64,000 bases of DNA. Origin: Rhynchobatus australiae. Lineage: Eukaryota. Of the stretch, positions 1,934 through 64,000 are shown in pieces. Under the pieces are notes generated by a model. That model ran no database searches. It was not told the DNA's origin and saw nothing but the letters and a program-made list of their open reading frames with translations. Position numbers and translations under genes: made by a program. The stretch's first letter is position 1. Each line of letters opens with the position of its first letter. The DNA lies in the NCBI GenBank assembly GCA_034780895.1, contig JAUZTB010000068.1, positions 21,029,964 through 21,093,963 of the forward strand. The letters run 5' to 3'.

Positions 1934-13683
<11,750 letters not shown>

Positions 13684-30187: not shown

Positions 30188-30640
30188 CCTCGCTCCAGCC
30201 TGTTGTTATGCCGCAAAACGTGTTGGCACAACTGTCGCACAAGGAACCGCCCCGCCCCTGATCACGTGGCACGGCCGGCATGTGATAGAGCACTTGCACA
30301 TCCCCCATCTTTGTACGGCGGCTGGCTAACGTGTTGTAATCTGAGGGTGCCCGATTCCATCTGAAACACAGTAGTTGTAATAATAACTGTCTCGCTACAA
30401 CATGTAAAAGATTATATTTGCGTGAAAGCGTTAGCATCGAAGCGCCGAACCAGATCAGCGATGACGCAAACGCCTAAAAACAATTTAGGTATTTATGAAG
30501 ACTTTGTGCGGTGGAGAGTGGGTTGGAACAGCTGTCGTAGAGTTGTACAGCTCAGAGCCGGGCCCCTCGGACCATCACGTCCATGCTGCCCGGTCAGACA
30601 GAAGACAAAGTGTTGCTGCCTCGAGAACGGCTAAGTGGTC
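30188..30640 (-). promoter_or_regulatory. PITHD1 promoter / 5' UTR, CpG-rich
   Basis: Tandem GC boxes CCGCCCCGCCCC at about 30247-30258; E-boxes CACGTG 30263-30268 and CATGTG 30279-30284. Confidence 0.7.
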
Positions 30641-32885: not shown

Positions 32886-32987
32886 TTATAACTTGCAAGA
32901 TGCTTGAGCGACTTTGGAGCTGGTTTTCCTCTTCAAAGCATTGCAGATGAACGCACCAGCCTCCATTAATTTCTGCAGATCCACCCC
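32886..32987 (-). CDS. HMGCL: HMGCL last exon (PTS1 CKL)
   Basis: tttttag|GGG...TTA TAA = [33 protein letters not shown]. Confidence 0.95.
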
Positions 32988-35900: not shown

Positions 35901-38900
35901 AATGATTCCTGGTTCTAGATTCTCCCACAAGTGGAATCATCCTCTTCCCAGTCAAGCACCCCTCAGGATCATTTGTTTCAATCTTGTATCCAGAAGATAC
36001 AAGCCTAGAGCCTCCAACCTTTCCTCAAAAAACCCATCCATCCCAACTGCTGGTCTTACGAACTATTTGTTTCCAATATATTCGCATCCTTCCTTAAATA
36101 AAAGGACCAATATTGTATGGAGAATTCCAGATCCTTATCAGTGCTCTATGTAACATATATCACTTTTGCTTTGAAATCCCCTTGCAAGAAATAATAATAT
36201 TCTCCTACCTTTCCCAATTACTTGCTGTACCTTCACCCTAATCTTCTTTTGCAAATCAAGGAGGAGGACATCCAGATTCCTCTGCAATTACTCACCATTT
36301 AGGTAATGCACTCTTATTTTTCCCTCTGAAAGTGAGCAAATTCACATATTCCCTACTTTGTACTCAGCCCTGGTACTGCATCTTTAATACCAGTTTCTAA
36401 CTATTTCCCCACTACAGATGTTAAGTCAACTGGCATGTAATTTCTTTCTCTCTCTCCTTTCTTTGAAATGAAAAGTTACACTTGCACATTTTCAATCTAA
36501 TAAAACCATTAGCGATTCCTGAGAATTTTGGAAATTTAAAACTAATGTATCAACTGCCTCACTAACCAATTGTTTTAAAGATCCTTGGATGAAGTCAATC
36601 AGAACATGGGGACCACAGCATCAACAATTTGCTCAATACCACTTGGTGATTTCCCAAGTTCCTCCCTCCCTTCCAAATCCCAATTTAGAGTTATTTCTGG
36701 GACACTCCTCCAGTGACCTAATGCAATATATTCATTTAATTCAAATGTAGTCTCTTTGTTTTCCATTTTTAATAGGACCACTGCTATTTCTGGCTGGCTT
36801 TGTTTCATACTCTATTTTTCCCTCATTAATCTTTTCATAATTCTTTGCATTTTTTTTAAAAAAATAACCCATCCAATCTTTTGGCATAATACATGACTTG
36901 TTACAATTAAATGCTTGTCTTTTAAAGTTTGATACAATCATTAACTTTTTTTAAAATTAACCACAGATGGTGGGTCCATTCCTTCGAACTTTTCTCATAA
37001 GAATGCATCTGTTCTGTGCATTCAACCTTTCACTTTATGCTGTTTTGGAAATATAGTGATAGAAGAAACATGTTCATACTTCTCACCTTTTGCTTGTAGT
37101 ACAGTTCCAAACAGTTTAAACACCTTTTTGTAAATTGTGCTATATACCAAAAATTTGAAACATTGACTTTATGAAATAAATAGCAAGTATTTTTTCAAGG
37201 TAAAATGTTTTGAAGTCTATAAATGCACCGTATCTCTTTAAAACACAAAGGGCTACAAATCCTACTTCAGATATTTTCTTCATCATAGTAATTGCAATAT
37301 CTTAGTATCAAAAGCAATGGTTTTAAAAAAAAGCCTTTATCCTGAGAAAATTATGGTGGCTAAACAGAGCTACACAAAGAAAAACAGATCATTAAAAGGT
37401 GCCTTGCCTAGAAAAGGTCATTTCTATTCTGCTTAAAATGCAGATCCAATTTAAAAGGCTGTGTAGAATGGCTTTGTTCAGAGCATGCTTGAGATATCAG
37501 AAAAACCCTCAAATAATCATGGTGCTCTGAATGAATCAGAGAGGGGCTGTGTAACTGATCCTACAGGTGACATACAACTTGGATCCTGTCCAGCTCCAAA
37601 ATCAATCANNNNNNNNNNNNNNNNNNNNNNNNNNNNNNNNNNNNNNNNNNNNNNNNNNNNNNNNNNNNNNNNNNNNNNNNNNNNNNNNNNNNNNNNNNNN
37701 NNNNNNNNNNNNNNNNNNNNNNNNNNNNNNNNNNNNNNNNNNNNNNNNNNNNNNNNNNNNNNNNNNNNNNNNNNNNNNNNNNNNNNNNNNNNNNNNNNNN
37801 NNNNNNNNNNNNNNNNNNNNNNNNNNNNNNNNNNNNNNNCAATGGTATCTCCCAGGGATATCTCATAGCAGCCCATGGAATAAAGCTTCTTGGCCACCTG
37901 CAGAAAGCACACCATCAGTACCCAGATCAATGCTTTCCATCTGGCCTTTTGATTCTGTAATACATCATAAAATTCAGAGCCATGTATCTTTTGTGCAGAG
38001 TATCTAGAAGGGAAGAGAGAGCACAACTGTTTCATTTAAAATACAGCTGATTTCATAACCTAACAGACCAGTGAGTCAGATGAAGCAAATAAGGAAGTGA
38101 AGAGTGGCAGACACAAGGAAATTCTTCATAATTCTCAACAGATACACATTCCAGTTAGAAATAAGGATTCGATGAAAAAAGTGATTCACTCTTGGCAAAT
38201 TAAAGGACAGTACAAGACAAAGAAATGGTTTATAAAACTGAAAAGACTAGCAGAAACCATAGTTGAAAGATGGAGAAAATATAATGTGGCTTTAACGCTT
38301 CCAAAACCATGCAAAAGAAATAGCAAAAGTAAAAACTGATTCCTTAGAAGCTGAGGCAAGGGAAATTAATGGGAAATAAGGGCAGAGAAATTAAACAAAT
38401 ATTTTGTATTCATTTTTACAGTAGAAGACACTAAAAAGATATTATATAGTAAGTAACCAAGAGGAAAGCGTGTGAGGAACTTAANNNNNNNNNNNNNNNN
38501 NNNNNNNNNNNNNNNNNNNNNNNNNNNNNNNNNNNNNNNNNNNNNNNNNNNNNNNNNNNNNNNNNNNNNNNNNNNNNNNNNNNNNNNNNNNNNNNNNNNN
38601 NNNNNNNNNNNNNNNNNNNNNNNNNNNNNNNNNNNNNNNNNNNNNNNNNNNNNNNNNNNNNNNNCAATCATGGACAAAGAAAACAGGAAACTATGGGGTA
38701 ACATCAACTGCAGGGAAACTGCTAGAATCCTTTATTAAGGAGAAGATAATAGAGCAGAGGAAGAAGCCGTATAGTTATACAAAAACGAAATAATGCTTAA
38801 CAACAATTTGAGAATATAATCAGCAGCACAGGTAAAGAGGAACCATTATATGTAATATATTTAGGTTTTGAAAAAGCCATTTGATAAAAGTTCCAAATAG

Positions 38901-41900
38901 GTTACTGAAGTGCATAGTGAAAAATTAGCATGGAGAGAAGTTTAGTTAGACAGAGAGCAGAGCAGGGATAAATGAGTAATCTGTCATTTGGCAGGCTGTA
39001 ACTATTAAAGTGATTTTGCGGGGGCTGCAGCCAGTTATATTGATTACTTAGAAAGATGCAAGGTTACATGGGAAATTAAGCTTAGAAGTGGACGCAAGCA
39101 GTCTGCAAGGAATTAAAAATGTGTCAAGTGATGAGACAAAGAGGGACTATAATGAGGAGAAATGCAAGGCATCCACTTTGGAAAGAAGAACAGAAAAACA
39201 CATTATTTAAATATTGTGAAATAATTAAACGCTGGTGTCAGAGGAGATTGGGGGGTCATTGTACAAGAAACACATGCATGTACCTTAATTACTTGAAGGA
39301 ACATCCTTTATACTGCAACTCAACAGGGTCCTGGTGACACTAACTGGAATTATGTGTACAGTTCTAGTGCATTCTTTTTTTAAAGAAAGGGTATTCTTGC
39401 CTTGGAGGTTATGCACCATAGATTCCCATGATTAGTGGTCATTAGTGGAGAGGGGTGGTTGGTGATTGCTGTTCTATGAGGAAACACCACGCAGATTGGG
39501 CCTAGACTTTCTGGACAACAGAAGCATTTTTTGGTGGACTAAACAAAGTAGGTATTGTGGGAGTCTAAAACAATGGACATAGTTTCAGGATAATGTGCCT
39601 TTTAGAAGTCTGAAATGAGAAAGAATTTACTCTGTTTGGAATTTCCAACCCCCGAATGTTACAAAAGTATTGTCTTCTCAGTTTAAAAAAAAGAATTAAA
39701 GGGTTATGGGATCAGGCTGGAATGTAATATAGAAGCCAAAGATCAGATCAGCCAAGATCTTACTAAATGGCAGAATAAACTCTAGGGGCCACATAACCAA
39801 CGCCCACTATTTCTTATACTTATGTATCGATTAATGAAGTTAAACTATTAAATTAAAAGAATGTTTATATTCTAATTATTATTGTTCCTCTTCTCCCATT
39901 CCCACCATACTTGCCTCTGCAACTTTAACAGGGGAAACATTCCCTTCATAAGGACAGCCAAGAACACAAGATACGTATCTGAAACAGTTCAAAACAAAAG
40001 CTGATTTTGTATAGTAAGACAATCTAGATTCTCAGTGGAAAAATAAAGTTGACAGTCTTTGTACAAGCCCCTGCTGTTCAGAACCAGGCAGTACGGATCA
40101 TTGATAACTATATATAAAAAACCCACAAAAACTGAAGAGGTTACAAATTAGACATAAAATCAGAAAATGCTGGAAACACTCAGCAGTCAGGCAGCATCAG
40201 CGGAAAGAGAAACAGTTAATGTTTCAGTTCTCAGACCCTTCATCACAACTGGAAAGAGAGAAAATAAGTTAGCTTTCAGCAACAGAGGTGGTGGGGGAAG
40301 AATGGGTAGAACAAAAGAAATACCTGCTGGGGCATCTCCTCAGATTTACTATATGTAAAAAAAAATTACACAGATGAAGAAGCATGTTGTCCTAACTACT
40401 TCATTTACTAATTTGGACTTGTTCTACCCATTCCTCCCCTACTTTCTCCACTTCCAAAAACTGTTTCTTTCTCTCCCAGTTCTGATGAGTCTTGGACCTG
40501 AAATATTAAGTTTCCTTTTCCACAGATGCTGCCTGAATTGCTGAACATTTCCAACACTTTCTGCTTTCATTATGGAAAGCTAAAGTCCAACCTGTAATTG
40601 GTCAGGACATAAATTCATCTTTCCAATGGCTAACTAAAATTTACTTGCATCTTTTTCAGCATGAATTGCTTATTTCATCTTAACTAGGTGTAGACCTGGC
40701 ACAGACTGATCATCAATAACATAATCTGCTGTAAATGCCAAGTTGTATTAAAGCTTCATGGCACTTTTCCTGTTAATCAGACAAATAAGCTTTCCTATTT
40801 CAAGTCATTGCTAGTCGAATACGACTGGTAACACAAACTAAAAGGATGTCAGATTCCAATCAGATTTAACTGTCCTTTCAGTTTGATTTCCTCTCTTCCC
40901 TTATCTCATTCGGCAGTTCAGGACTGGGGAACTATACTGGATCACTTTGAATTTATAAATTTCAAACAAACGTTCAAAGGCAAGGAAGAGGATCTGGAAC
41001 TGTTCTTGCCCTCAAAAGAATAAACCTGTTTGGTCAACTGAAAGAATGAATAATTTCCATAAAGGATCAAGAAGCCTGCTGCCTGTCTGCATATAGTTAA
41101 AAGAGGGAGATGTGTTGACACCAATGGGATGATTGATGCCAGACAAGTGCCAAGATGTGATCTATAAAGGATGTTGCTGTTTCAAAACATATTTCTCAAA
41201 TGTGCACAACAGTTTATGTATAGAGAAAGGGTCTGATTTAAAGGTTACTGGAACTCCTTTCTAGCCTCAAAATTTCCTTCTTAAATGGTGCAGTTGTATG
41301 AAACATTGTCAGAAATGTTGATGAATGATGTCACAAGTCTGTAGGGAGGATTTTATTGAAAGCAGGTAAAAGTATACCTTTTATTGAAAAGGTGTGTGTG
41401 GCACGTGTCTTTGGGGACACTTTGGGTCAGCCAAATGATTGGAGTGTACAGTTGTGGTTCTGAGCTTCTACTGATAACCATTGAAATTGAGTTTTTTTAA
41501 AAAACAGAATGATGTCTTTGTTTTTTTATTTGAGTACTGTGAAAAAACATTAATGTTGCAACAGGATTAAATGTCAAGCCTCTAGTGTTCACGGCCAGTT
41601 TTCTCAAAATTAGTAGCAAAATTCAGTTACGCCTTTAACATAGTCAAATGTCTATTGCAGAAATAGTTGAATAAGTTGATTTGCATTCAGTTTTATCCCA
41701 TGTACCTTGGATAACGGGAGGGGCTGCACCTTCTGCTGTCAAGCCCCTCCCTGCACAGAGTACTCTATTAAACACATAACTTTCCAGAACATGTTACCTT
41801 CCCATTTCCTGGAAACCTCTTCATATATCAAGATAATCATTCACTGCGTGCTGCTGTCGACAACAGTTATCAGCACACATTATCCTAAGTGAGGAGAATA

Positions 41901-44900
41901 AACTGAAAGCCCTGGTCAGCTGTTTAGTTCTTGGTTTGGTTGAAATGCAGCTTGTTACTTGTGTGATTAGAAAGGCAGGACTTGTTTTCTCTGAAGAGGA
42001 GGCGGCTTAAGGGCAACCTGATAGAGGTATACAAAATTATCAGATGTATAGACAGGGTCTTTCAGAGATCGTCAGGATCTTTTACCTATGGTAAGGGGTA
42101 TCAAAAACAAGAGGACAGAGATTTAAGATGAGAAGTAGGAGTTTTAAAGGTTGATACCTGGAACTCACTGCCAGAGGAGGTGGTGGAGTCAGATACAGTC
42201 ACTACACTTAAGAGGCATTTAGACAGGCACTTGAATAGACAGGCAAGGTACAGGAATAGGGACATAATGTGGGCAAATGGGATTTGTGTAGATGGGCAAA
42301 AAGGTCAGCCTGGATGTAGAGGAATGAAGGGCCTGTTTCTGTGCTGTAATTTCCCTCCATAGATGCTGCCTGACCCACTGAGTTCCTCCTGCTTTTTGTG
42401 CGTTGCTCTCTGCTGTACAACTCAATGACTTGAAGCCCGATCATGCACTTATAAGACAACGATTGCCACCCTGTGGCAGAAAATGGTAAATACACAACCC
42501 AGCAAATGACAATCAATCGTAATCTGCGGGTACACATAATAAATCAGTTCATTCTATCTGCATAGGTTCTCATTGTTGTTCCACAGACAGCTTTTACATT
42601 CCTCTTCTTTGAAGCTTCTGTTATTGTACTCCAGATTCCAGTCAGGGCATGGATTATGTACTATTGCAGTCTGCTCTGCAGTGACAGACTGTGCAAAATG
42701 TTTTCTGTTCTCTTGAGTTCAACAGCTTTCGAGAAAACCAGCTACTGTTGGATAGCTATACTATGCAATTCCTGGATTTAAAGCTCTCAAACTGTCAAGT
42801 TAAAAAAAAGTTGACAAAATCTTTTAGAAGAATGTGTAGCCCAAGCTTTCAAAATAATTGAAGATTGCAGATCCAATATGCTTGAAGGTGATGTGGAAAT
42901 TGTAACAGGAAAGAAACCAGATTACAAATTTAAATTCTTGATTCAAATCCATTGGATATCTCAAGTTATCCAGGAAAATAAAACAAATGTCATCACAGCG
43001 ATGCATACTTGTCAGCACAATTCAAATGCAGTTTTGTTTAGAGGATGGGAAAAAAATGGAAATCATAAAAAACCCAGTTACATTAAAATATTTATGATCA
43101 TTTATAATACCAAAGATACATTTGTAATGTAATTCTGTTATCAATAATCTTATTTTAAGAACAGATAACAGAGTTGNNNNNNNNNNNNNNNNNNNNNNNN
43201 NNNNNNNNNNNNNNNNNNNNNNNNNNNNNNNNNNNNNNNNNNNNNNNNNNNNNNNNNNNNNNNNNNNNNNNNNNNNCAGAGTTGCCATTTTATTCTGTGC
43301 TTTTGCCCTAAACAGGGAAGTTCCAACATCAGTTCCTGTTTTGGGATAATCAAGAGAAAGCCAAATAACTGCTTTGACTTTTAAGTTTCAAAAGATCTTT
43401 GATCGTGTTTATGCAGATACAAAGGAAAGGAAGTTTGGTTATTTTCAATAGAGAGAAATTTTTACTGCATAAAAATGTGAAAGGTTTTTAATCTTACCCT
43501 CGGACTGGAATACTTGCATCCTTTGCTGCTTTCACCACCTCTTCAAACCGCTGAAGACTCTCATCAATTGAACAATTAATATTTCTTTTACTGAACATTT
43601 CTGAGGCTGCTCCAAAGATGGCAACCTCTTTTGCACCTGCTTTCAGCTGTGAAAAAACAATACATTTTTCCTCTTCACAACATAAGGTAACAAAATAAGG
43701 CATTAAACTTCCCAGTCTCAGCTTTACTTTTACTCTACTTTGATTCATCATTTTTTTTTAAATGAATCTTCCAAGGAGCCTCATTAAACTGGATATTAAT
43801 CTATCCTTTTCTTCTTTGACAAAAATCCTTTACATAAACATTGAAAAATATTATGGGCATCTTGAGTACATTACACCTTCTGGATAGTTATAATCACAGA
43901 ATTATTTACAGTGATGGTAATAGCTTAGCACCCTATATGCCTTTTTAGATCCGCTGAAGTTCCTTTCCCATACTCTGCCCCCAGTTGAGGAGCTGTATAT
44001 AATGGCTGGATCATGCTCACTTTTGCCACTAGTTGCTATTGCAACTGTCAGTATTTGGCTGTTCAAACTAAAGTACCAAAATCCTGTGTGTACACCATGA
44101 AACACTCCAGATTTGAAGATCTAGAATTGGAACTCAAATCTATTGGTTTACTTTGTTACTGGATTCCGTTGGATCCTATGACAGGGCCCAGTCTTGCAGA
44201 AATCCTTTATTATGCTTGGGAAATCACCGCTCAGACCTTACAATGGGGTTGTAGGACAAAGGATTAGGAAATAAAAAGGGAAGGTAAAGTTACTTTTGAA
44301 TTATTTTGCACTAGTTTGATGCTTCTAATTAAAAGATTTTTTAATGTTAGTTATGTTTTGAAAAACTAAACCAAAAAAATCATAGTTTTAATTACTTTAG
44401 TTTAGCAGCTTTAAAAATGTCTCTGAATGAACTTAAAAGGATTGCACCTTAAATGTAACAATGACTTCCTCCTTGGCCCTGTTGTATATTTTAGTAAACC
44501 TTATGGGCCAGATTTTGCTGAGAATTGCCAGCAATCTTCATTCACTTCTGAAATTCAGAGACATTTTGTAATGTTCAAAGTTTTGACATCTTTGAAAGCT
44601 GGCTAAGCTAAGGATATAGTTAGCTTCAGCATTTTTGCAGGTAGCAATTTTCTGCTCCCCCTTGCTCACCACCGCAAGCTGCTTTCCTCCAGCAGTTTGT
44701 GTGTGTGTGTATTGCTCCAGATTCTAGCATCTGCAGAATCTTTAGTCTCTGTGTGATGGATTTATGTTGCAGGAGGCCCTGCTGCAGTACATGACATCTG
44801 CAAATTCTGGGCAAGTATTTCCAGCCTTTTCACTTCCTTATAACCCTTAAAAAAAGTGTTTGTGGGATCGGAATTTTTATTATTCTAATTCTTGAAATGT

Positions 44901-47900
44901 ACATGGAATTGAAGTTAGAGTTTCAAGACAAATTAAGAATATATAAACAATCATGTGGTGCAACAATGACATTTTTATTTATGGACTCAAGTTATATTTA
45001 AAGGTCCCTGTAAAGATATTTTACCCATTAAGGGAACAGGGGCAACTGCAAGATTTGCACTAGATACTTACTGCAGTCTCAAACCCTTTTAGGTTTGGAG
45101 TCAACACTGGGTAGCTCACGTTTGGATATTTTCGGATTCCTTCCATCACTTGCTGCTGATCTGCCATCTATAATGAATACATCCCAAAGTATAGAAAGAC
45201 CACGTACAAGAGTCATCACTTATGTATGCCACGATCTTTCGAAATTCTCGTACATTACTACCTGATTAGAACACTGAGGTGTTATTTGTGCAGCAAATTA
45301 ATTAGCACAAATCATAATTAATCAGTGCAACAAAAACTTTAGAACACCATAAAACATCCCAGGGGATGCAATGGGAGGGATATCAAACAAAATTTTACAC
45401 TTGGCAAAGGAATTATCAGTATACACGTCTGAAATTGAGGTAAACAAACAGATGCATCTCAAAACCTCTCTTGCTGTGGGGAGGAAGACAAGAGAGGTGG
45501 AGCCAGTTTACAGAGCTTTGTGGCTGGGTACCTGAAGACACCACTACCAATGGCACTGTGGTGAAAATCAGCAGAGGTGCACGAGTTTGAGAAATTCTCT
45601 AATTTCCATGACTCCAAAAGGGTTGATATCTGATTTCATGAGGAACTCATGTACAGATTCATACCTCCAAATGTGTACCCTTCCATTTTTTTTAAATCCC
45701 CATTTAATTTTCACATTTTCTATCTTTTAGATCCATTAGTGCCACACAATTGTCCTCACTTGTGTGGAGGAAAATGAAGCCCAAATCATTTTGATTCTAT
45801 TTTGTGGCTAACAACCTTAGTCCTCAGACTTTTTGATACTTTTCCACTCCACTCTACGACCCCAATCCAACACGTGGTCTGGTTAAGAATAGGAATTTCT
45901 AAAAAAAAAGAACTACTTTTAAAGGTCCAGTGCAAGCAAAAAGGTCATTGCAAATACAAAACAGCAAAAAATCCATTTTATCTTGACAGAAACTGTTTGA
46001 TGTTAACTAAGTGAAAATAAGCCCAAAAAAGTTCTAAACAACAACAACAAAGTGCTGTGACTTCAGATTGCATTGGCTGAATACAATAACTTTCCAAGTA
46101 CAGAGAAAACAGCATTTTTTCTTAAACATTAACAATTTAGTTTTCAGAAACAAATATTGAATTAGTCTTAGTTTTCAAACATGCCAATCTCCACAGAATA
46201 CTTATATTTAACAACTTTACATTCAGTTTTGTGCTGTATGAGGGAGGAAAATAACATGAATCAATTTGCTTCTATACAAAAGATTGTTTCTCTTCAAACC
46301 AAAATATTTAATCCCCTTTCCTACAAAAGTATTCTTTCCACTACTTTGGTGATCATAACCATAAAACAGTTGGGAGATAAAAGCCTGCTTTCTGGTTGTA
46401 TTGCTTGTTAAAGTCCAAAAGCTAAGGTCCAAGCACTCAATATAATTGCAAAAGCCAAAGTCTAGGCTATTTTCTATTCCTAATCTCTTACCTGAGGAAC
46501 CCATTTTGGGGAGACAAAGCTTGTTGCTTCCACAACAGACAATCCTGCCTCTGACAGAAGGTTAATTAATTGAATTTTCACATCAGCTGGAACAATGACC
46601 TGCAATAAATTTTAAAGTGAGAGTCACAAACAGAAAAAAAACAAACATTAAATTTTCCCAAGTTCAACAAGACTTTCTATTGGTATTGCCTGAACTACTG
46701 AATGTTTTAAGCATTTTGTTTTTATTTCAGATTTCCAGATGTCAGTTTTGATTTTCAGTAATGCTTTTCCTTCTCCATTGTGATCTTGAAAGGCGAATTC
46801 AACTCGGTTTCTGAGAACTTAATTTCAACATACAGTCTGCAGAGCTTCAATGAAAATGTTTATTAAGCAGAAATGTGACCAAGAACTACTTTCTCAGTAT
46901 TTTTCAATTTGGTAAGGCTGTTATCAGTAAAATAACTAATGTTTTGTAAAAAACATAATCAGGAAAAGTTACACTTGCTCTATGTTAATAATATTAAAAT
47001 TAAGGTTTCAACACAATATATAAAATATCTTAGTCAAGTCAATGAAATCCAAGGGGTTAAATTTGGGTTCTGCTGAAAATGAAGGTGGAGATTGCAATGG
47101 TCAGTTAATCTGCACCTTCTTCTGATGCAGACAGTACACTAATTTTGTGCTGCCTGTACATTTGCACAATTGCTGTATAGACCAGTACCAACTGCAATTT
47201 TTATAATCAATGGCACAACTTAGCAGTGGGCTGCAAGCACGTAAATCACAAACCTAAAGAGAGTACATTGTAGCTACAAGGATTGATTGGTGCTTTTTCC
47301 AAAAATCAAACTGGACCATCATTCAGTACACAGGAGATGCCTCTAAGATTTTCCATCACTGCATTATAAGTGGGAGATGTGATCTGTGGTGTTCTGGGGC
47401 TCTCCAAGTAAATAGTCAGAAGATAATCAGAGCAAACGACTTCCATCCGACCTCAAAGATCCTTGGTGAGGCACTGCAAGACTTCAAATAAATGGTCAAG
47501 ACAGGTAAATGCATCTTTAGATGCCATTATCCCATCAGTTCCAGCTTCAGGCATCATACTGCTATCACGCACCTATCAACATTCTTAATTAGGACTGATA
47601 TCTATACAGTGAAGAGAAGGCACAATGTTACTCAATTTAATAATTGTATCCATTGGATACTCACACCACACATATTTTAGGGTTAGTTTAAGAGGGGAGA
47701 TCTAGAGATAATGGGTCATCTGGTACAAGTATCCTGCAGCCAGGGCATGGGGCAAACACACAGTTGACACTTTGTCAGAAAACAAGTTGTAAATGAGTTT
47801 TGCTGGAGAATAGTCTGATAAAGACCTTGGAGTGGCTTGGAGAAGATGGTTGATGCCCATGCATAGCAAAGTGCTTTGTGCATCGGGTGAGCCAATCATA

Positions 47901-50900
47901 TAATGAATGCAATACAAAATCATAAGAAATGGGAGTGTGATGCTCTTCATGACTGCCCTGCCATTTAATAAAATTATGGCCATCCTTCTGCCTCAGCACC
48001 AATTACTTGTACTTACCTCAAATCAACACCTGCGCCCACCAAATATCAAATCAGCATGCAGGAATCTGGCACCAACCTTGTTATATAGGCTTTATGCAGA
48101 TATTAGAGCTTGTATTCACTACAACAGTGTGGGCAGGATACCCATGGATTCCACTCCAATCTAACACGTGAAGGGCAATGTTTCAGCTTTGGTGATTCAA
48201 ATGCTTGTCCATATGCTCCTTAAATGTTGTGAGAGTTCCTTCCTCCACCACCTTCTCAGACAGTGCACCTATCCCCTGGTTGTAAAAGAATTCTGCCTCA
48301 GATTTCCGGGGGGGGGGGGGGGGCGNNNNNNNNNNNNNNNNNNNNNNNNNNNNNNNNNNNNNNNNNNNNNNNNNNNNNNNNNNNNNNNNNNNNNNNNNNN
48401 NNNNNNNNNNNNNNNNNNNNNNNNNNNNNNNNNNNNNNNNNNNNNNNNNNNNNNNNNNNNNNNNNNNNNNNNNNNNNNNNNNNNNNNNNNNNNNNNNNNN
48501 NNNNNNNNNNNNNNNNNNNNNNNNNNNNNNNNNNNNNNNNNNNNACATCCTTTCTAGAGTTGTCTGTAGCCTGGATTGGAGCATTTCAATTACACAAAGA
48601 GACTGGATAGGTTGGGTTTGTTTTTCCTGGAGCTGAGGGGGCTGAATGTGACCTGATAGGAGGTATATAAAATTGAGGGGGGATAGATAGGGTCAATAGT
48701 AAAAATCTGTTTTCCTCCCCCATTGTGGAGATGTCCATGACAAGAGGGCATTGGTTTAGGGTAAGAGACAGGAGGTTTAGAAGGGATCTGAGGGGGAAGT
48801 TTCTTTTCCCCCTATGTCACTTCTTTCTAAAGATTTGATTTCATTTTCTACTAAATGAGCCACCCAACCCACTCTGCATACCTATCTTTTCAACAGGATA
48901 TGTATCCTTGAATGTTTAGCTTCCAGTTGTAATCTTCTTTCAACCACAACTCTGTGATGCCCACATCATCATACCTGCCAATTTCTAACCGTGCTACAAG
49001 CTCATCTACCTTATTTCATATACTGAGTGCATTCAAATGTAACACCTTCAGTCCTCATTCACCACCCTTCTTTTCAAATTTGTCTCCATGTTGCCTGAAG
49101 TTCAATTCTTATCCTTTTCTAAACTTTGCCTTATAATTTATTCTGGAGACTTCAGTAACCTCTCCTGCACTCTCCTTCCCAATATCCTGCACAACCCTTC
49201 CCAAATTATCCAATATTGCTTTGATCGGCTTCTCATAAATAGCACACTTGGTACTTAAAAATCTTCTTTGTTAATTGAGAAATAACATTTGTGTCCAAGA
49301 AAAAAAAACTAATATTTGAAATCAATAAAAGCATAATGTTGTTTAAAACATTAACTCAAACTTGTTAACTTGTTGAACACAATTTTGGTTGGCATTGTAA
49401 GATAAGAATTCAATTCAGCTTTATATCCTTGGAGGATATAACTGACACAAACTGTTTGTGTTTTATTACAATGTTTCGGCACCATGTATTGTGAATTACC
49501 TTTTCATTCTGCAGTCCATCTCTGGGTCCAACTTCAACAATTTTCACATGCTTGGGCAGAGATTGTGCCACTGCCACACCAGCCTGCATAGCATCAAGGA
49601 AAAATTGTCAATACCTTAATAGATTTTAGCATTGCTTCTCTGCAATGGTATCAAAGATCTCCCTGCAATCATTACTATGAAAATCTACAATATTACTATA
49701 TTAACTACGTAGTTTTACTAGTAGTTTAACAAGTGTCCATTTTAGAACAAATGATCCTTGGTTTAAGGCCACATGTTATCCACTGAACATATTTTGTACT
49801 TTGTACCAAGGAAAGCAAAAATTCAATTGACAAATAGTGTGCCTTACAAAGCAAACACAAGAGGTGCAAGGAAGCCACACATGCACACAAAAAAGTAAAT
49901 CTACTGAAACATTTTCCATTTGTATTTGGGCACCATTGGCAAGATGTGCATTGATTTGCCTTCTCTAATTTATGCAGGTGGTAAATAGTGGGATTGGGAA
50001 GACTTGATTAAGCAAATTAAGACTTATTAAGCAAAGAGAAAGACAATGTCTGTGACAAGGTGGATGACTGGAATCAAAGCAATAGTTTCAGATGAAGTTA
50101 TGTTTAAGGTGTATTAGAGAGAAGTAACATAAAAGAGAAAATTCAGGAAGTACTCAGCAAGTCAAACTGTCATTAACATAAGAAACAGAAGGCCAATTGG
50201 CTGCACAAACCTCTGCCACTAAGATCTTGGCTGATCTATTCCTCAACGCCACTCCTGTGCTCTCCTCAGACCTCTCGACTCCCTTGAAGTTCAGATATCT
50301 TTCAGTCCCCACCCTGAATACATTCAATGACTCTGCTTCCACAGCTCTCCCAGGCAGGAAATTCCAAATAATCACAACTTTCTGAGAAGAAATTCTTTCT
50401 CATTGTCTTAAATGGTGACTGCTTATTCTGAAACCATGTCCCCAGTCCTAGACAGACTCATAAAGGAACATCCTGTCAATAACCACCCGGTCACTCCCTC
50501 AGAATGTTATACGTGTCAATAAGATCACTTCTCATTCTTCTAAGCTCCAATGTATCATCAGCAAATTCAATTTGTAAATGTCGTTTGTAAACAGGTGAAG
50601 CCCCAGCACTGATCCACGTGGCACCCTACTTGTTGCTGATTACCATCCAAAACTGACTCATTTATTGCTACTGCTTTCTTTTGGTTAGCCAATCCCTATC
50701 CATGCTAATATATCACCCACAACTTAGTGCACCCTTATCTTGTGCAGTAACCTTTTACATGGCACCAATCAAATGTATTCTGAATATCCAAATACACTGC
50801 ATCTTCTAGTTCCCCTTTATCTATCCTGCTCTTTATATCTCTAAAGGATGCTTGTAAATTTGTCAAAAGTTTCGAAATGCCTTGCTATTACCTCCTTAAT

Positions 50901-53900: not shown

Positions 53901-55922
53901 CCAATAGTATACATCAATTGCTGGGCATGTCCCATAGGCCCACAATTTGCAACACATTATATTTCTTTGTCCATCTCAACATCCTCTATCTGTCCTATTT
54001 GACTGGAGGACAGATGAACCCCATGAACAATCTGGCCTCACCCTAGAGATATTCCCTTTGTCCTGTCCATTCCTCCCCCACATTCTCTGTAGCTTTTTTG
54101 TTTTCTTTTTTTACCCAGTTCTTCAAACTGAAACATTAACTCTTTCCATAGATGCAGTCTGACCTCATCTCTCATTTTCCTTATGACACAGAGGTAGGCC
54201 ATTTGGCCACTGAGTTCATGCTGGTTCTCAGAGCAATCTCATCATCCCACTTATTTCACTGCAACCAATTCACTCTTACATGCCAATTACTTTCCCCGGA
54301 TTCTTCTCTTGCCCACCAACACTGGGGGAATTTAAAACAGCCAATTAACCTATCAACCAGTTTTTGGGATAAGGGAGAAAAATTGAGCACCTGGGGCATG
54401 TCACAGGAAGAACCTGGAAGATCCACACAGCACCAGATTAATTCAGGTAGCTGAAGCTGTGAAATACTGTCCTGTCTCATGACCCGCCAGTTCAATCTAT
54501 CACACCACGAGGGGTGCTACAAATCATCAGTGCGCAAACACCAACCTGCAAGCTGTGGATGAGATCGAGAAAGATTTCTATTCCAATCTTGGAAAAAAAA
54601 CCCTGGCCTGCATCCCAAAGGCGGCAAACTGATCTTCCTAGGTAACTTCAATGCAATCCTCTGGAAAGACGCGATTGGTTAGGATGGAGAGGAGAAATAA
54701 ATAACAATGGAGCCCTTTTCCTAATAAAATGCCTGGAGCACACNNNNNNNNNNACTGTGTCATCATCTCAATGACGGACCCCAGCACCTGCACAGGAGAT
54801 GAGGACTGCTGGATTGACTACCTTCAACTTGGCTCCAAATCAAAGGCAGCAACAGTTCTGAAAGCCTCAAAGACTTGGCAAAGGCAGTTTTTCCTCAGTC
54901 AGGACTACAAAGACAGCCGGACAACTCCCAGTGCATCCACAGGGCTTTGACTGGCCTGAAGTCTACTGTAATTAGTATCTGTGTAGAGAATCTTGGCTTC
55001 TCTACCAAAAAGCGCCAGGATTACTTAAATAATGACCAGGAGATCTGAGAGCTAAATAACCATAAACAAAGACAGTTTATGAATTAGAAACTCCTCAAGG
55101 AAAAAGAAACAGCTTTACAAACATCTGGAGACTGAACTGTAACAGAAAATGTGTAACCTCAGAAACGATTGTGGGTGGAAAGAGCACAGTACATCCAGCA
55201 CCTCTCTAATAACTACAATGTATATGTATTTTTCAGTGACTTTAAGGCAGTATGCCCCAATCTCCCAAGGATCTAACCTGCCAAAAATGAAGGATCACTT
55301 ATCAGGGAAAGTGAAGCAATCTGCACTTGCTGAAAGGAGCATTTCAAAGCACTCCACACTAAACTATTTCAGATATTATTTAGCCCAAGAAAATCAAAAT
55401 ATTACAGATACTGGAAATTTGAAATAAAAATTGAAAATGCCAGACTTGCTGAGTAATTTTTGTTTTATTTCTGATTTCCAGCATCTGCATTTTTTTTTAA
55501 ATATACATTTTATCTGCTGTATTATTCTATGTTCTCTGCTCCAGGTTCTACTGTTCCAAGGCAAACATTATCACACACTACAAGCCAGCCAACACGAACT
55601 GCAAATTTTCACACCACTTAATATTTTGCGGACATCTTTGTTCAAGTACTTTTACTCATAAAGGAAAAAAAGTACAAATGCTGCTAAGAACCTGTCTCCT
55701 TGCTTTTCCCTACTGCTCTTTTTTTTTGTCCATCAATTCGACCCTCAAAATCAGCCACGAACAAACATTTCCTATTTACAACCGTCACGCCCTGCAGTGC
55801 GTTCACTTGGAAGACTGTCCTGCGTTGTCACTCACGGTTGTGGCCAGCGCACGTTGGAAGGCAGCCGCAGCAGCAACAACACGCAGTCTCGGCAGCCTCA
55901 TCGCAGCCGACAGCAACGCCAT
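32886..55922 (-). CDS. HMGCL: 3-hydroxy-3-methylglutaryl-CoA lyase, mitochondrial/peroxisomal; spliced gene, partly in assembly gaps
   Basis: Exons 55922-55836, 49583-49500, 46599-46492, 45167-45072, 43646-43498, 39978-39915, 37897-(gap from 37839), exon 8 not visible, 32987-32886. Motifs [46 protein letters not shown]; Arg/Ala-rich presequence; C-terminal CKL. Confidence 0.96.
33625..34562 (+). mobile_element. CR1 LINE 3' fragment (RT C-terminus and 3' UTR)
   Basis: ORFs 33709-34098 and 34053-34481: [58 protein letters not shown]; frameshifted. Confidence 0.9.
35419..35495 (+). mobile_element. 3' end of probable LTR (family B)
   Basis: Matches 2310-2386; ends ...gtaaCA; preceded by an N gap. 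Confidence 0.55.
35640..37000 (-). mobile_element. Decayed CR1 LINE fragments
   Basis: CR1 3'-tail-like text at 35645-35900, gtcaactggcatgtaatt (reverse NY-PV) and an LNEY/SPG-like stretch; bounds approximate. Confidence 0.55.
37840..37897 (-). CDS. HMGCL: HMGCL exon 7, visible 5' part
   Basis: ctttctgcag|[19 protein letters not shown](G), then N gap 37609-37839. Confidence 0.93.
38100..39830 (+). mobile_element. Decayed CR1 LINE ORF2 fragments
   Basis: [16 protein letters not shown], atatatttaggttttgaaaaagccatttgataaa (YLDF-KAFDK) and a CR1-like tail; bounds approximate. Confidence 0.6.
39915..39978 (-). CDS. HMGCL: HMGCL exon 6 (GC donor)
   Basis: 64 nt; [21 protein letters not shown]|gcaagt. 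Confidence 0.92.
40155..40570. repeat. Fold-back element: two inverted arms (about 150 bp) of the common elasmobranch Penelope-terminus-like repeat
   Basis: Left arm aatgctggaaacactcagcagtcaggcagcatc...gggtagaacaa; right arm ttgttctaccc...gatgctgcctgaattgctgaacatttccaaca. Confidence 0.75.
41985..42350 (+). mobile_element. CR1 LINE 3' fragment
   Basis: [40 protein letters not shown], then the CR1 tail gaagggcctgtttctgtgctgta. Confidence 0.8.
43498..43646 (-). CDS. HMGCL: HMGCL exon 5
   Basis: 149 nt; [49 protein letters not shown](G). Confidence 0.95.
45072..45167 (-). CDS. HMGCL: HMGCL exon 4
   Basis: 96 nt; [32 protein letters not shown]|gtaagt. Confidence 0.95.
46492..46599 (-). CDS. HMGCL: HMGCL exon 3
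   Basis: 108 nt; [36 protein letters not shown]|gtaaga. Confidence 0.95.
49500..49583 (-). CDS. HMGCL: HMGCL exon 2
   Basis: 84 nt, phase 0-0; [28 protein letters not shown]|gtaatt. Confidence 0.95.
50170..51400 (-). mobile_element. Decayed CR1 LINE fragments
   Basis: ORF 51043-51288 [13 protein letters not shown]...[17 protein letters not shown]; ORF 50154-50375 [18 protein letters not shown]. Confidence 0.8.
51765..51910 (+). mobile_element. Deu-domain SINE remnant (SacSINE/AmnSINE-like)
   Basis: tttggatgag...ttaaacc...taaaagttctcatgg...ttgaagaggag..ttattcctggagttcttgccaaaattta resembles the recalled Deu core. Confidence 0.55.
52200..53830 (+). mobile_element. Decayed Penelope-like element (RT and GIY-YIG endonuclease)
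   Basis: ADKGGAPVV (52300), [26 protein letters not shown], then [10 protein letters not shown] and R-GE-FVEH-RSV, PVACH; many frameshifts. Confidence 0.85.
54500..55230 (+). mobile_element. Decayed RTE-type LINE endonuclease fragment
   Basis: [24 protein letters not shown] (GDFNA motif), CWID; disrupted. Confidence 0.65.
55836..55922 (-). CDS. HMGCL: HMGCL exon 1 (mitochondrial presequence)
   Basis: 87 nt; [29 protein letters not shown]|gtgagt; Arg-rich with no acidic residues; Kozak gaaATGG; in a CpG island. Confidence 0.88.
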
Positions 55923-56070
55923 TTCCAGTCGGCGTCCACCAGATCCCGCGGCCCGGCGAGGATCACATGACCTCGCCGCCGTCCGCTCCGCCAATCAGCA
56001 CTCACTGAGCGTGGCACCGCTTCTTGTATTGCTGGGGGATTCCAGCCGGGTGCAATGTGCCTGCAGCTGA
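55923..56070 (-). promoter_or_regulatory. HMGCL proximal CpG promoter
   Basis: CCAAT 55991-55995; GTCATGTGA E/M-box 55963-55971; YY1-like AAATGGCG over the start codon. Confidence 0.7.
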
Positions 56071-56174
56071 GGTCTTGCAGAGTCTCTTTAAGTGGTTTGC
56101 TTCCCAAACACTCGTTATAAGTTTTGAGCCGTTTTATTGCAACTAAAAGGTACCAATATAAATATACAGTCGAG

Positions 56175-56378
56175 AAAGCAGATTCTGGAAACCTTAAATA
56201 AAAACAGGAAATGCTGTATACACTCAGCAGGCCATGCAAACAGAGTTAAGATTTCAGATCAGTAACCTTTCATCAGAACCTTAACCCAATCCTTTCAATT
56301 TCATTGACCTGAAACATCAACTCTGTTTCATTCTCACAAACTCTGTCTGGCCTGCTGCATATCTCCAACATTTGCAGT
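56175..56378. repeat. Short fold-back element of the same family as 40155-40570
   Basis: aaatgctgtatacactcagcaggcc...cagagttaagatttcag is inverted against ctgaaacatcaactctg...ggcctgctgcatatctccaacattt. Confidence 0.65.
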
Positions 56379-58581
56379 GGCATGTTTGTAGCTCACAAGG
56401 AACAGATTGAACCATTTGGGAATGTGGGTGGATTTTTTTGTGGTTGGGAACATAATGGGAGTCTGCAACCTGCACCTGCAGTGCTGTAGAATTGCCTGAC
56501 CAAGCTGCAGACCTTAAGGCCTTAACTTTCAATACAAATACTTTACAGCACTTTTTTGCGAAGAGCTTGATTTTGAATGTATAGCAGTCTGACCCATCTG
56601 CATTTGTGATGATCAGCATCAGATTTAGATAAAAATAGGCATAGACTATTCGGTCCTTCGAGCGTGCTCTGCCATTCGATACAATCATACACGATAATCT
56701 GTTTTAATATCATATTTCCACATCCTCCCCATACACGTTGATGACTTTCGTCTAGAAATTTAACTTTATGCTTCCTAAGAATATTCAGTGACTGTAGTCC
56801 TCAATGGTCGCAAATTCCACAGGTTGACCGATCCTTTGAGTGAAGAATTTTTTCTTCATGTCAGTCCCAAATCTCTTGTAAAATGAGAGTGTAACTTGTT
56901 CCAGACACATCCTCCGCAAACAAGTTTGTAGAGTTCTGTGAGAATTTTGTATGTTTCAATTAGATCCCCTCTCATTCTTCTGAACATTTGTAAATAAAAA
57001 CCTAGTCAAGTTAATCTCTCCTCATGCAACAGTCCTGCCATTCCAGGATTCCCATCCTATGCAGGACCTTAGCACCCCTAAATTGCCCATAGTTCAATTC
57101 CCATATATCTCCTTGGCTAGTGAGGGAGTGTCATCTGTAAGGTCGGAAGTTGTGATGAACTGGCCACCTCTTAACTCCCCAATTATATCTTTGCACCATC
57201 TATCTGTCAGCAGTGTGTTCAAGTTTTCTCTACTTGGCCAGATGATTGCAGCTCAGATTGGCATAATTTTAATACCAAACAGCCTGCTTGAATAGCACGT
57301 CATCACCACCCAAAACATTCACCTCCTCCATCTCCTGGGCACTAATGTGTATCCTCTGCTGCTAACAGTGCAGTTACCTACCAAAGCCACTTCAAAATAG
57401 TTCCCCAACCTGGAAGGGCTAAAATCCAAGACAGAAGGTGCATGAAAACACCACCAAGGCCCCCTCCAGGTCACACGTCATCCAGATATGGAAATATATC
57501 ACTGTTCTGTTATTGTGGCTGGGACTAATAGCTGGAAATCCATGCTCAACAACAAACTTACCAAAATTGGTTCTGCACCACCTTCAAAAGAGAAGTGAGC
57601 ATAGGTAACAGATACTGGCCTGGACAGTGATAGTCACATTCCATAAATGAATTATAAACAAAAACTGCAGGAATTGGAAATGAATAGCAGAGCTGTTTTC
57701 CTGGGGGAATCTGCAAATAACCACCTGAGCTTAACGAGTAAGGAATTGTTAGCTCAGAGCTAATTACTGACCCAATAGGACGAGATACCAGAGGTTTCTA
57801 TCCACAAACTATCACACATACATCATTTTTCTGATCACCTGTTACCTATGTAGAAACATTAGGAAAGAATAATGTCAGAACATGCATCCAATGATGGGTA
57901 TTGAAATAGATAATCGGCCATGACCTGCTTCTATTTTCTAACTATGGATGTTACCACCAATGCTTTTTTGTTCGACTGCTGACCATTCTATAACTCTAGA
58001 ACTAAACTAGTGAGAACAGAAAGGAAAACATTGACTCTCATCTCTCTTCAGTACGGTAATAATCTATCCTGCACCACAGTACTATAGTAGAACTAGAAAC
58101 AAAACTGTGCGTCCCTTTACCAAAGAACCGGGACAATTATAACCAAACCGGGACGCACAATTTTGAAACAAGGCATCCACATATGAGGGAAGTAAAATAA
58201 ATGCCACATTGTGGAAACGGAATAAATCTTGTCGTTTGTTTTAAGTAAAATGGAAAGAAAACACATTCAAAAGAACTCAAATTAAATAGAAATATCAGTA
58301 CAAAATACTTCATAAATATGAGACGAACTTAAAAAGGCCACGGTTGTTCAGGAAATAAAATTAATACAAATTTTCAATAAGCAAGTAAGTGAAATCATGT
58401 AAGAAAATGCTACAAATGCATTATACTATTAAAATACCGTTTTATGATAACGTATATTGGTGTGTCCAATATACACACCCTAATGCACTGTGAGTCGTTA
58501 CCCCACGTAGGTTTCGGAATGGAATGCCATTTCGACGCAACTCTATCTCTCACTGATTTTACTTCTAATAGTCTGACTCAC

Positions 58582-58602
58582 CTGTGGACAGATCGCTTCC
58601 AT
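58582..58602 (-). CDS. HMGCL: Candidate alternative first coding mini-exon of HMGCL (MEAICPQ)
   Basis: aggATGG strong Kozak, 7 codons, perfect donor CAG|GTGAGT (58581-58576), phase 0 matching HMGCL exon 2; no transcript evidence available. Confidence 0.5.
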
Positions 58603-58760
58603 CCTACCCACCACATTATTTCACGTGAAAATGAAACTTCTTGCGACCGAAATACTCCAAGAACAGGCAAAACAAAGCTCCAATTTTTCTGACGTCAGGA
58701 AACTAAAATAGTAACTTCCTTCTCGCTTTCTCTCTGATTAGCATGTTTTTTTCTGACGTT
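58603..58760 (-). promoter_or_regulatory. Upstream promoter-like element with E-box, ISRE and CRE
   Basis: TTTCACGTGAAA palindrome 58619-58630; GAAAATGAAACT (ISRE consensus GAAANNGAAACT) 58627-58638; CTGACGTCAG 58689-58698; visibly raised CpG density over about 58430-59150. Confidence 0.6.
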
Positions 58761-60869
58761 TCTATATTTTTCATATACGTTACATTTATTCAAGAATGTT
58801 TCCCCCACTCGTTTTTTAGTGAAAATAATGCCTTTCACTTTTTAGTGAAAGATCAAAAGCCAATCCTCATTTCCTACGCGATTGATGAAACAGAGTATCT
58901 CCCAAATACAAGGAAACGGTAACTTAAAAAGAGACGGACGCATGTAACAGGATATGATTAAATGTGCAGTCGAAAGCCAAATCGAAAAATACAGAATAAA
59001 CGTTCTTAATCCATCAATATAATATATATTGAAACTTCTTGTTTTTTTAAAATAGTCTGTAACTAAAAATCTTGCCTCTGGAGTCTGCAAGGCTTAAGAC
59101 TTGTCGAACGTTGGTAGTTGTTCGAAACCTATGCGCTCGAAAATAGGATTAATGCAGAAATATATTGGCCCTAAACTGTACTGATAGGTTTATTCTTGGT
59201 CAAGTACTTGAACCAAGTAAACATAGTCATATTTGTTAATCATAGAATCAAGGATTGATTACAACAGTTGTTAGTCATCTATCCAGAATCATAAATAGTA
59301 AGGAGTAACTTAATTATGTCTAAATATTTTATATCATTAATAAGCTAGCAATATCACTTTGTGATTGGCAATAAAAAGCACAAACAAGTAACAAGGAGAA
59401 CTATTGACTTTTCCCAAAGGTTTGCATCAGCTGGGTGAAACCACCCAGCACTCAGTGANNNNNNNNNNNNNNNNNNTGGCCAGATGTTGTTATCTACTGC
59501 AAAATTATTCTTCCTTTGATACTGTGTAAATATATGATCCTTTATCTTCCTTTGGGAAAACAGGCACCTGGGAGGAAGAATTTCATCTCAGCAGTCCTCA
59601 TCCTGTATTCCAGGCTCTGCTAACATTAATTCAGAACAACCACTTTGGGGGAATTCAAACGAGGGAATTGCGGGAGAACACTGGGTGTAACTTCATGCAG
59701 CAGTGAAAGCAAGCTAATGGAAATGGCAGAAGGCAAGGAGCAAGAGCTGGAAAAGATGTGCAGGAGTTTAGGAGAAGGAGAAAGGGAAGAGCAAAAAGGA
59801 TCAACAATTTGAGGCTAACGAAAGGAACAAACAGCATTAGTCATTTTCTTAATCTGACGCACATAAATTGTTCAACAGTGAGTATGGTGTCTGGAATTAT
59901 GGAATCTTACTACATTTTCTAAATTTCAAAGACTGGAGTGATAGCCATACCACTGAACAGAAAAATAGGCAGTCTATTATTGCTTCAATCCAGACAAAAG
60001 AATGGGCTATCACATTATAACTTGTTTTGTTGGCAGGGCATTTCAGTTAAAATGTGAAGTACACCAACTGTGTGTAAAACAGAATTCAGAAATCACCTGA
60101 TAGTTTAGCTCAAAGGCACAGATGACTGGGAAGTAAAGGCATAGGAAATTATATGAAGGGCCTTGCCATTTAATGGTAAGGGACCAATTGCAGAAAATAG
60201 TTCCTATTAATTTAAGAATCTGTTTACTTTTTTAGTTGGATAAATTGTCTTGATTAGGTACATGTAAAGGCCTCATAATGGCAAGAAGAGTCTTCAGAGC
60301 TACAGAAGACATCTCTTGGAATTCTGAATATGTCGCAAATGCTGGCACATCTCCGCAGAATAACAAAATTGAGGTTCATGCTGCCACAGTAATTAAGTGC
60401 TCTTTTTGTACTCTTGGCACCAATATTACTATTGAATATCAAGGGAAAATGATGATATTTCCACATGATGCAAATGGTTATTGCCACATGCTAGAGTGGA
60501 ACTATGGTAACTTCCCCTGCAATCCAAATGGTGCAAAATTTCACAGCATTCAAGTATAGGCTCCCTTGTTGTTTGTGTCCGGAGCTAGTGGAGTAAAATC
60601 CCCATGTGAACCTTGAGCCTATAAGAGGTGCACTGACAGCATCTTCAAAGATAGCCTCTCTCGTTACCGCCTACCTTCTCCTCCTTCCTCTTCCTGCTGT
60701 CATGCTGTGGGCAAGAGCTGTGTTCATATGGTGTTAAGGAGAAGCAGGAGTGTAAGATACAGTAGTACAAGACATAGTGGGCATGTCTCCCTCCTCTGAA
60801 TTTTAGATTATTTTGTTTATATTCTTTTTCTGTGTTCTCACTCTCTAACTGCTCATTGACCAGATAACG

Positions 60870-61085
60870 TCGACTACAGCTTATCCCCATGGTCACCCTG
60901 GTTCTACCCTATCAGAGACACCCCCCTCCTCCACCCATCCTGCAACTTTTATCTCCCCAGTTCTGACAAAGGGTCTTTGACCTGAAACAGTAACTCTATT
61001 TCTCTTCCCACAGATGTGGCCTGAGCTGCTGCGTATTTCCAGCATTTTCCGTTTTTATTTTAGTTTTCCAGTACCTGCAGTTTTT
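60870..61085. mobile_element. Penelope-terminus-like repeat copy
   Basis: ccagttctgacaaagggtctttgacctgaaac...cacagatgtggcctgagctgctgcgtatttccagcatttt. Confidence 0.6.
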
Positions 61086-63140: not shown

Positions 63141-63510
63141 GTATTGGTATTGGTTTATTATTTTCACTTATACTGAGGTTCGGTGAAAAACTTGTCTTGC
63201 ATAACGATTGTACAGGTCAATTCAGACACAGTGCAGTACAGAGTACATTGAGGTAGTGCAGATAAAAACAATAACAGTACAGAGTAAAGTGTCACAGCTA
63301 CCGAGAAAGCGCAATGCAATAAGGTGCAATGACTGGAACTCTTCCAGTTGAAAGTGACAGATCTNNNNNNNNNNNNNNNNNNNNNNNNNNNNNNNNNNNN
63401 NNNNNNNNNNNNNNNNNNNNNNNNNNNNNNNNNNNNNNNNNNNNNNNNNNNNNNNNNNNNNNNNAAACAATAACAGTACAGAGTAAAGTGTCACAGCTAC
63501 AGAGAAAGCG
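63141..63510 (-). mobile_element. 3' tail of the Rex/L2-type LINE seen at 27806
   Basis: tggtttattatt..cactt..act.aggt.c.gtgaaaaacttgtcttgcata shared with 27812-27865. Confidence 0.7.
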
Positions 63511-64000
63511 CAATGCAATAAGGTGCAATGACTGGAACTCTTCCAGTTGAAAGTGACAGATCTCATTAACCGCTGCCTCAGAAAATCTTCTTTTAAGACC
63601 CACCTGTGACCTTGGCCTCAGCAATAGTCACTCCAGTGAATATGAGTATTGTCTCTTCCTTCTGGGCAATTTACAGAGTCACATTGCATGGAAACAGGCC
63701 ATATGACCCACTATGTCTGTGCTGAAAAGTGGACACCCATCTGTATTAATCCCATCTTCCAGCATTTGGCCTGTTGCCTTCAATGCCAAGGCAATTCAAA
63801 TGATCATCTAAACATTTCTTAAGTGGACTTTGCTTCCACCAGTGCTTTCCAGGTACTCGCCACTCTTCCAGGCACATGATGAAAAAGAGACACTGAATGA
63901 TACAGATTTTCTAACCGCTGCATTCACTTTGGACTGAGCTGATGTGTGAAATAAGATAGGGAGGGAGAGCAGGTGGAATAGGAAGGAGAGAGGTCTGCGA

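Follow-up and report, generated by a model that had tools for sequence, protein, structure and literature searches.

In many sharks and rays, HMGCL has an alternative first exon with a coding part of only seven codons, and this exon is almost certainly real. In RefSeq isoforms from at least 13 of 21 elasmobranch species, this exon (MG[AG]xC[TAP]Q) is joined to HMGCL exon 2 and replaces the exon that encodes the mitochondrial presequence. By its sequence, MGxxCxQ has the layout of a predicted myristoyl-plus-palmitoyl anchor, as in the MGQICQ start of HK1S, and the ancestral role of the mini-exon was probably to give rise to a dually acylated, membrane-anchored HMG-CoA lyase. The starting point was a stretch of 64,000 nucleotides from Rhynchobatus australiae, referred to here as the window, in which the exon reads MEAICPQ and carries Glu instead of Gly at its second codon.

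The gene and its two first exons

Judged by sequence and phylogeny, the gene in the window is an HMGCL orthologue: it encodes an HMGL-like domain (PF00682 matches P0129) and groups with HMGCL rather than HMGCLL1. In the tree, chondrichthyan sequences form a starred clade within the HMGCL group, whose own support of 93/93 is unstarred. The exons of the window are 90-100% identical to HMGCL of Pristis pectinata, the closest among named proteins. On the minus strand, canonical coding exon 1 (55836..55922; 87 nt, phase 0) encodes 29 residues that are rich in Arg, include no acidic residues and constitute a presequence by homology; in human HMGCL, the leader comprises residues 1-27 (PMC6941031, available part). 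Exon 2 (49500..49583; 84 nt, phase 0) follows ...TATGCAG and supplies the acceptor for both first exons. Further internal exons were located by tblastn at about 46599-46492, 45167-45072, 43646-43498, 39977-39915 and 37900-37840, all on the minus strand and together spanning 37840..46599, and the 37900-37840 exon meets a run of N at 37839. The last coding exon (32886..32987, minus strand, stop at 32886) encodes ASCKL-stop, where CKL is the peroxisomal signal, or PTS1, of HMGCL (PMC6941031).

For residues 194-279 of P0129, no HMGCL-type match was found in the assembly; runs of N occupy window positions 34820-35418 and 37609-37839, where the corresponding coding part should sit. The region for the last four of the catalytic and metal residues (R41, D42, E72, Y167, H233, H235, C266 and N275) is absent from the assembly of the window, and all eight are present in 13/13 of the short-leader isoforms. 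Downstream, at about 5600-30150 on the minus strand, the neighbours are a PITH-domain gene (matches at about 30133-29999 and 22974-22861) and a phospholipase/carboxylesterase gene (5604-5957). GALE gave no match, either between these genes and HMGCL or anywhere else in the window and its 40 kb of flanking sequence, and the nearest fucosidase gene is ~740 kb away; the order of neighbours differs from the human one. An unrelated ORF at 30087-30305 gave no match in an Atlas search.

The mini-exon is located 2.7 kb from the ATG of exon 1. Its coding part (58582..58602, minus strand) reads ATG GAA GCG ATC TGT CCA CAG from 58602 to 58582 and is followed by the phase-0 splice donor GTGAGT (58576..58581, minus strand), which shows no difference in four of four other runs. 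The start codon is flanked by A at -3 and G at +4; 21 nt upstream lies a TGA in the same frame. The preliminary description had reported an ATG in strong Kozak context, a perfect donor and phase 0, an exon 2 that also begins in phase 0 and a protein ending in CKL; all were borne out, the CKL-stop both in the window and in the 13 isoforms. The mini-exon region is single-copy by genome search. A strict pattern consisting of R..ATGG, 2-15 open codons and AG followed by GTRAGT occurs once on the two strands of the window, as compared to 0.033 expected from 60 Markov simulations, and a looser start-plus-donor pattern occurs once as compared to 0.73 expected, both counts resting on a pattern defined post hoc with the site already known. 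Within 40 kb of flank there is one further match to the strict pattern. This second site, ATGGAG followed by GTAAGT at about 9273-9278 of L003 (minus strand, ~25 kb upstream), falls in a bin of raised CpG and may be due to chance or a repeat. At window positions 49584-49589 on the minus strand, an in-frame ATG CAG immediately precedes the exon 2 acceptor, so that translation of a leaderless protein might also begin there on a transcript whose 5' end is unspliced.

Transcription of the short form would begin in an upstream patch that retains CpG, with exon 1 being spliced over. This putative promoter patch (58001..59000) has a CpG observed/expected ratio of 0.87-1.16 and, since its G+C content is only 33-38%, is not a canonical CpG island. 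Within it, the palindrome TGACGTCA (58690..58697) is unchanged in four of four near relatives. This palindrome is a putative CRE-type site, which would suit control by CREM in spermatids or by CREB during fasting. Of the 13 runs listed for window 54760-59450, none is on record as RNA, a result with no bearing on expression. An E-box-like motif, CACGTG, was rejected as a conserved element, being destroyed in run X7. The CpG-enriched patch with promoter motifs that had been described earlier is upheld as to its CpG and TGACGTCA, both kept, while the patch itself is AT-rich and the E-box is lost. A role as the promoter of a plus-strand gene is not evident: in 25 kb upstream (window 58700-64000, L002 and L003), none of 101 plus-strand ORFs of at least 45 aa exceeded the Pfam cut-off and four gave weak matches, in a scan that leaves 107 minus-strand ORFs and L004-L005 outside and whose 45-aa floor would miss short exons or non-coding genes.

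Conservation of the mini-exon and its predicted lipid anchor

The species set was assembled from a search with one internal exon combined with cluster-member look-ups, 15 of 22 members being listed for one cluster. RefSeq isoforms are computed models, of a type generally built from transcript (RNA) alignments. They agree with the earlier proposal of an alternative first coding exon of HMGCL joined in phase 0 to exon 2, and the orthologous mini-exon that the proposal called for in other sharks and rays is present in the models of at least 13 species. Across these isoforms, the first exon reads MG[AG][IVAS]C[TAP]Q and the models have 312 aa, one of them with an upstream extension. The form MGAICTQ is found in Mustelus, Scyliorhinus canicula, Stegostoma, Amblyraja and, with the extension, Heterodontus; MGAVCTQ in Hemiscyllium and Chiloscyllium plagiosum; MGAACTQ in C. 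punctatum; MGASCTQ in Heptranchias; MGGICAQ in Hemitrygon, Hypanus and Mobula birostris; and MGAICPQ in Pristis. Orthology is also supported at the DNA level, since the leader adjoining the ATG of the window on its upstream side (58603..58620, minus strand) encodes in frame the same NNVVGR that ends the extension of the Heterodontus model, P0141. In all eight pairs tested, the short and the mitochondrial isoform of a species have identical bodies past residue 7 of the short form. The short RefSeq isoforms carry a 'mitochondrial' label though they have no presequence.

For the remaining eight of the 21 species (Mobula hypostoma, Narcine, Carcharodon, Rhinoraja, Rhincodon, Cetorhinus, S. torazame and Leucoraja), a mini-exon isoform was not seen among the models listed. 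Other RefSeq first exons, again among the models listed, are confined to one species each: isoforms X1, X2 and X5 of Mustelus, X2 of S. canicula, X2 of C. punctatum, X3 of Cetorhinus and X1 of Hypanus. Outside elasmobranchs, no MGxxC-type HMGCL start was present among the matches listed (473 proteins, of which 429 include the core of exon 2). An earlier description of the mini-exon isoform was not found in the literature searched, most subscription journals being outside it.

Gly2, Cys5 and the CKL end are each present in 13/13 isoforms, and position 6 is Thr in nine, Ala in three and Pro in one. Counting changes along the phylogeny of these isoforms gives one, three and two at positions 3, 4 and 6, respectively, and none at positions 2 and 5; under equal rates the probability of this outcome is (3/5)^6 = 0.047, a modest figure given only six changes. 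Exon-2 positions 11 and 15-17 are also invariant in the 13 isoforms, and the first base of the Gly2 codon doubles as Kozak +4. Twelve of the 13 isoforms fit the PROSITE-type myristoylation pattern. In four carpet shark proteins (P0138, P0140, P0142 and P0146), the short isoform has, besides Cys5, a Cys at position 9 that is a possible extra acylation site.

Going by established NMT chemistry and by analogy with HK1S, Met would be removed, Gly2 myristoylated and Cys5 S-acylated, and the resulting stable membrane binding would outcompete PEX5 import via CKL. The enzyme would then be anchored at the cytosolic face of membranes, with promoter choice switching it between mitochondria and the predicted membrane-anchored form. 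Since CKL is retained, peroxisomal import may still occur. The published MGXXXS/T consensus (PMC4736023) covers the nine isoforms with Thr6; of the others, three have Ala6, and Pro6 is found in Pristis as well as in the window. In HK1S, a form with Ala3 and no Ser/Thr6 (Q3A) lost membrane localisation (PMC4736023, available part), suggesting that the Ala3/Pro6 form of the lineage comprising Pristis and the window may be a poor myristoylation substrate even with Gly2. A signal weakened in this manner could have let the Gly2-to-Glu allele segregate in the Pro6 lineage.

The Glu2 variant is due to a single base of codon 2 (58598, minus strand), which is A in the window (GAA, Glu) and G (GGA, Gly) in runs X4, X3, X2 and X7; accordingly, plus-strand 58598 is C in the contigs of all four when compared over 58520-58780. 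Run X4 shares its organism label with run X1 and comes from a different sample and study, and X3, X2 and X7 represent three other organisms; contig depth is under 5 for X4 and X3, 5.3 for X2 and 12.5 for X7. Two haplotypes are present in X4, one of them ancestral at 58598, 58666 and 58687; the second matches the window at 58666 and 58687 and stops short of 58598. Pro6 is common to all four runs and Pristis. An assembly error is unlikely, as a contig of X1 spans 58392-59450 with no differences, though X1 may be the assembly's own sample and hence not independent support for Glu2. Because 4/4 other runs read Gly, including the one that shares the organism label of X1, sequence comparison indicates that Glu2 is a derived allele. 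Cys5 is kept in the window, and it is the window's own allele that has no Gly2, and this allele would probably yield a soluble protein that is not acylated. Relaxed constraint on the mini-exon in the Pro6 ray lineage can be inferred. As the window reads Glu2, the preliminary description overlooked the anchor motif and put forward a promoter switch between mitochondria and peroxisome/cytosol. With MGxxCxQ conserved and MEAICPQ a derived allele, this is not supported as the general function and is reasonable only for the Glu2 allele, perhaps also for the Pro6 lineage.

For the other isoforms, it is rather unlikely that the exon serves only to remove the presequence, leaving a soluble enzyme that is peroxisomal or cytosolic by virtue of CKL and making the constancy of Gly2 and Cys5 incidental. 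For the Glu2 allele, this account is the likely one whatever holds for the others. The retention of CKL in all 13 isoforms is in its favor, as is the recurrence of presequence-less starts without MGxxC, namely the MIDCLDLE type of catfish and knifefish and the MGPLRRGS type of squamates. Isoform X2 of Callorhinchus starts inside exon 2, and both Pro6 and Glu2 have been tolerated in one ray lineage. Arabidopsis, too, obtains compartment isoforms of the lyase from one gene (PMC6941031). Against these points, Gly2 and Cys5 are invariant in 13 shark and ray species while their neighbors change, all but one isoform fit the myristoylation pattern mentioned above, and human HMGCL reaches peroxisomes with its leader attached (PMC6941031), so that a leaderless form is unneeded for that.

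An enzyme that is acylated yet peroxisomal, with myristate only aiding binding to the peroxisomal membrane and PTS1 setting the destination, is less probable still. Both signals are conserved on one polypeptide, and the lamprey gene likewise pairs an MGN-type start with SKL. However, CKL is common to the mitochondrial isoform, which makes its conservation uninformative for the short form, and gnathostome HMGCLL1 proteins in the tree set have an MG start with neither CKL nor SKL at the end; in the literature searched, no paper was found that combines myristoylation or dual acylation with a peroxisomal PTS1. Least credible is the view that the exon marks a minor or regulatory start of transcription and that selection does not act on its peptide, conservation then reflecting a DNA-level constraint on promoter or leader. 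In its favor are the leader 5' of the ATG, likewise conserved when the window is compared with Heterodontus, and the existence of the Gly2-to-Glu allele. Against it, the 13 species have all kept the ATG, the length of the exon, its frame and its phase, and only positions 3, 4 and 6 have changed; the Pfam result (0/101 plus-strand ORFs) gives no sign that the patch is the promoter of another gene. The dually acylated, membrane-anchored lyase is the preferred reading of the ancestral mini-exon.

Lampreys and the origin of HMGCLL1

In Lethenteron, Petromyzon and Lampetra planeri, one lyase body ending in SKL occurs with two alternative starts, one of presequence type and the other, MGNVYDVVxxC, similar to that of HMGCLL1, and the bodies are identical in 3/3 pairs (P0259/P0260, P0269/P0072 and P0069/P0266). 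By eye, the alternative N-terminus of Petromyzon matches mammalian HMGCLL1 at 7/11 positions. A quick tree placed the lamprey gene with HMGCL (support 78) without rejecting the alternatives (p-AU 0.33 and 0.36), and a careful tree did not settle its position relative to HMGCL and HMGCLL1. Under all three placements, the simplest inference is that the lamprey gene had both first exons before the HMGCL/HMGCLL1 duplication. With both N-termini in a single gene, the lamprey isoforms suggest a testable origin of HMGCLL1 by subfunctionalisation, in which alternative first exons were divided between the duplicates. HMGCLL1 has been dated to jawed vertebrates, and the available portion of PMC6941031 does not mention an origin from alternative first exons.

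The mini-exon and the HMGCLL1 exon share only Met-Gly, so a remnant and a re-invention are indistinguishable. A broader scenario can be offered tentatively, as a possibility with the balance against it. The ancestral vertebrate lyase gene would have produced both a mitochondrial and a myristoylated enzyme, and the exons would have been divided after duplication. Elasmobranch HMGCL would have kept or re-invented a dually acylated exon for a membrane-anchored, ketone-producing enzyme, possibly in sperm as for HK1S given the CRE-type site and CpG-retaining promoter. In sawfish-like rays, this exon would now be decaying, through Pro6 and then the segregating Glu2.

Other vertebrates also have starts that replace the presequence. 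In catfish and knifefish (P0120, P0274, P0277 and P0279), these share eight residues of the MIDCLDLE type, with no Gly2. Squamates (P0192, P0312, P0338, P0348, P0351, P0352 and P0357) have a conserved MGPLRRGSL[IM]GQ start in which RRxS is presumably a PKA-type site.

Comparison with known systems

Elasmobranchs rely on ketone bodies, a topic for which the literature search found no paper. What ketone-body synthesis does outside mitochondria is, according to PMC6941031, not known. A third form of HMGCL, probably lipid-anchored and kept by both sharks and rays, would provide a natural system for the study of extramitochondrial ketogenesis, together with natural loss-of-anchor variants (Thr6, Pro6, Glu2). 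Human HMGCL, the same gene with a presequence exon and CKL, differs in that both organelles receive the enzyme from a single precursor, with the leader still attached to the peroxisomal form; the variants covered in the available part of this review are inactive exon-skipping forms only, with no alternative first exons (PMC6941031). Human HMGCLL1 (er-cHL), which has an N-myristoylation motif, is catalytically active and is located at the cytosolic face of the ER (PMC6941031). It resembles the short isoform as an extramitochondrial lyase with a Gly2 myristoylation motif and the same catalytic core. In contrast, HMGCLL1 is a separate paralogue with a first exon of 30-36 residues, Cys11 and no CKL (PMC6941031), while the shark isoform comes from HMGCL itself and has a 7-residue exon, Cys5 and CKL. 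The first-exon motif of HMGCLL1, MG[NT]xxxxV/LKxC with Cys11, is not found in the mini-exon, which has only Met-Gly in common with it.

The genome of the window has a separate HMGCLL1 whose exon 1 begins MGNLPVC, which makes the mini-exon isoform look redundant unless tissue or membrane differ. The N-terminus of this paralogue has Val, not Ser/Thr, at position 6. Its exons fall on three scaffolds (G000 C2:7058713-7089096, C70:5439573-5439704 and C33:27129716-27129823), probably a scaffolding artefact.

The switching mechanism itself is already of a known type. PDE2A, which differs in being a signalling enzyme, includes a dually acylated form, PDE2A3. From one gene, N-terminal variants direct PDE2A2 to mitochondria and PDE2A3 to the plasma membrane, with PDE2A1 being cytosolic (PMC5423767, available part). 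In Arabidopsis, the single lyase gene At2g26800 yields isoforms for several compartments by alternative splicing; its origin is independent, and no lipid anchor is mentioned in the available part of PMC6941031. In HK1S, use of a germ-cell promoter puts MGQICQ in the place of the mitochondria-binding exon; Gly2 has been shown to be myristoylated, and G2A, C5S or C5A each abolish plasma-membrane localisation (PMC4736023). On its own, myristate gives only weak binding, and a second signal is required, for instance an acylated Cys close by (PMC4736023). The two systems differ in that the somatic exon of HK1 binds the outer membrane whereas HMGCL exon 1 is a matrix presequence, and in that HK1S has no Ser/Thr6 and needs Gln3 whereas most shark forms have Thr6. 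The acylation and sperm specificity of HK1S have been shown, while the shark form is predicted, and no homology is claimed. What HK1S and shark HMGCL have in common, as far as the available part of PMC4736023 describes HK1S, is a metabolic enzyme with an alternative promoter and first exon or exons that confer a Gly2/Cys5 motif, MGQICQ in one and MGAICTQ in the other.
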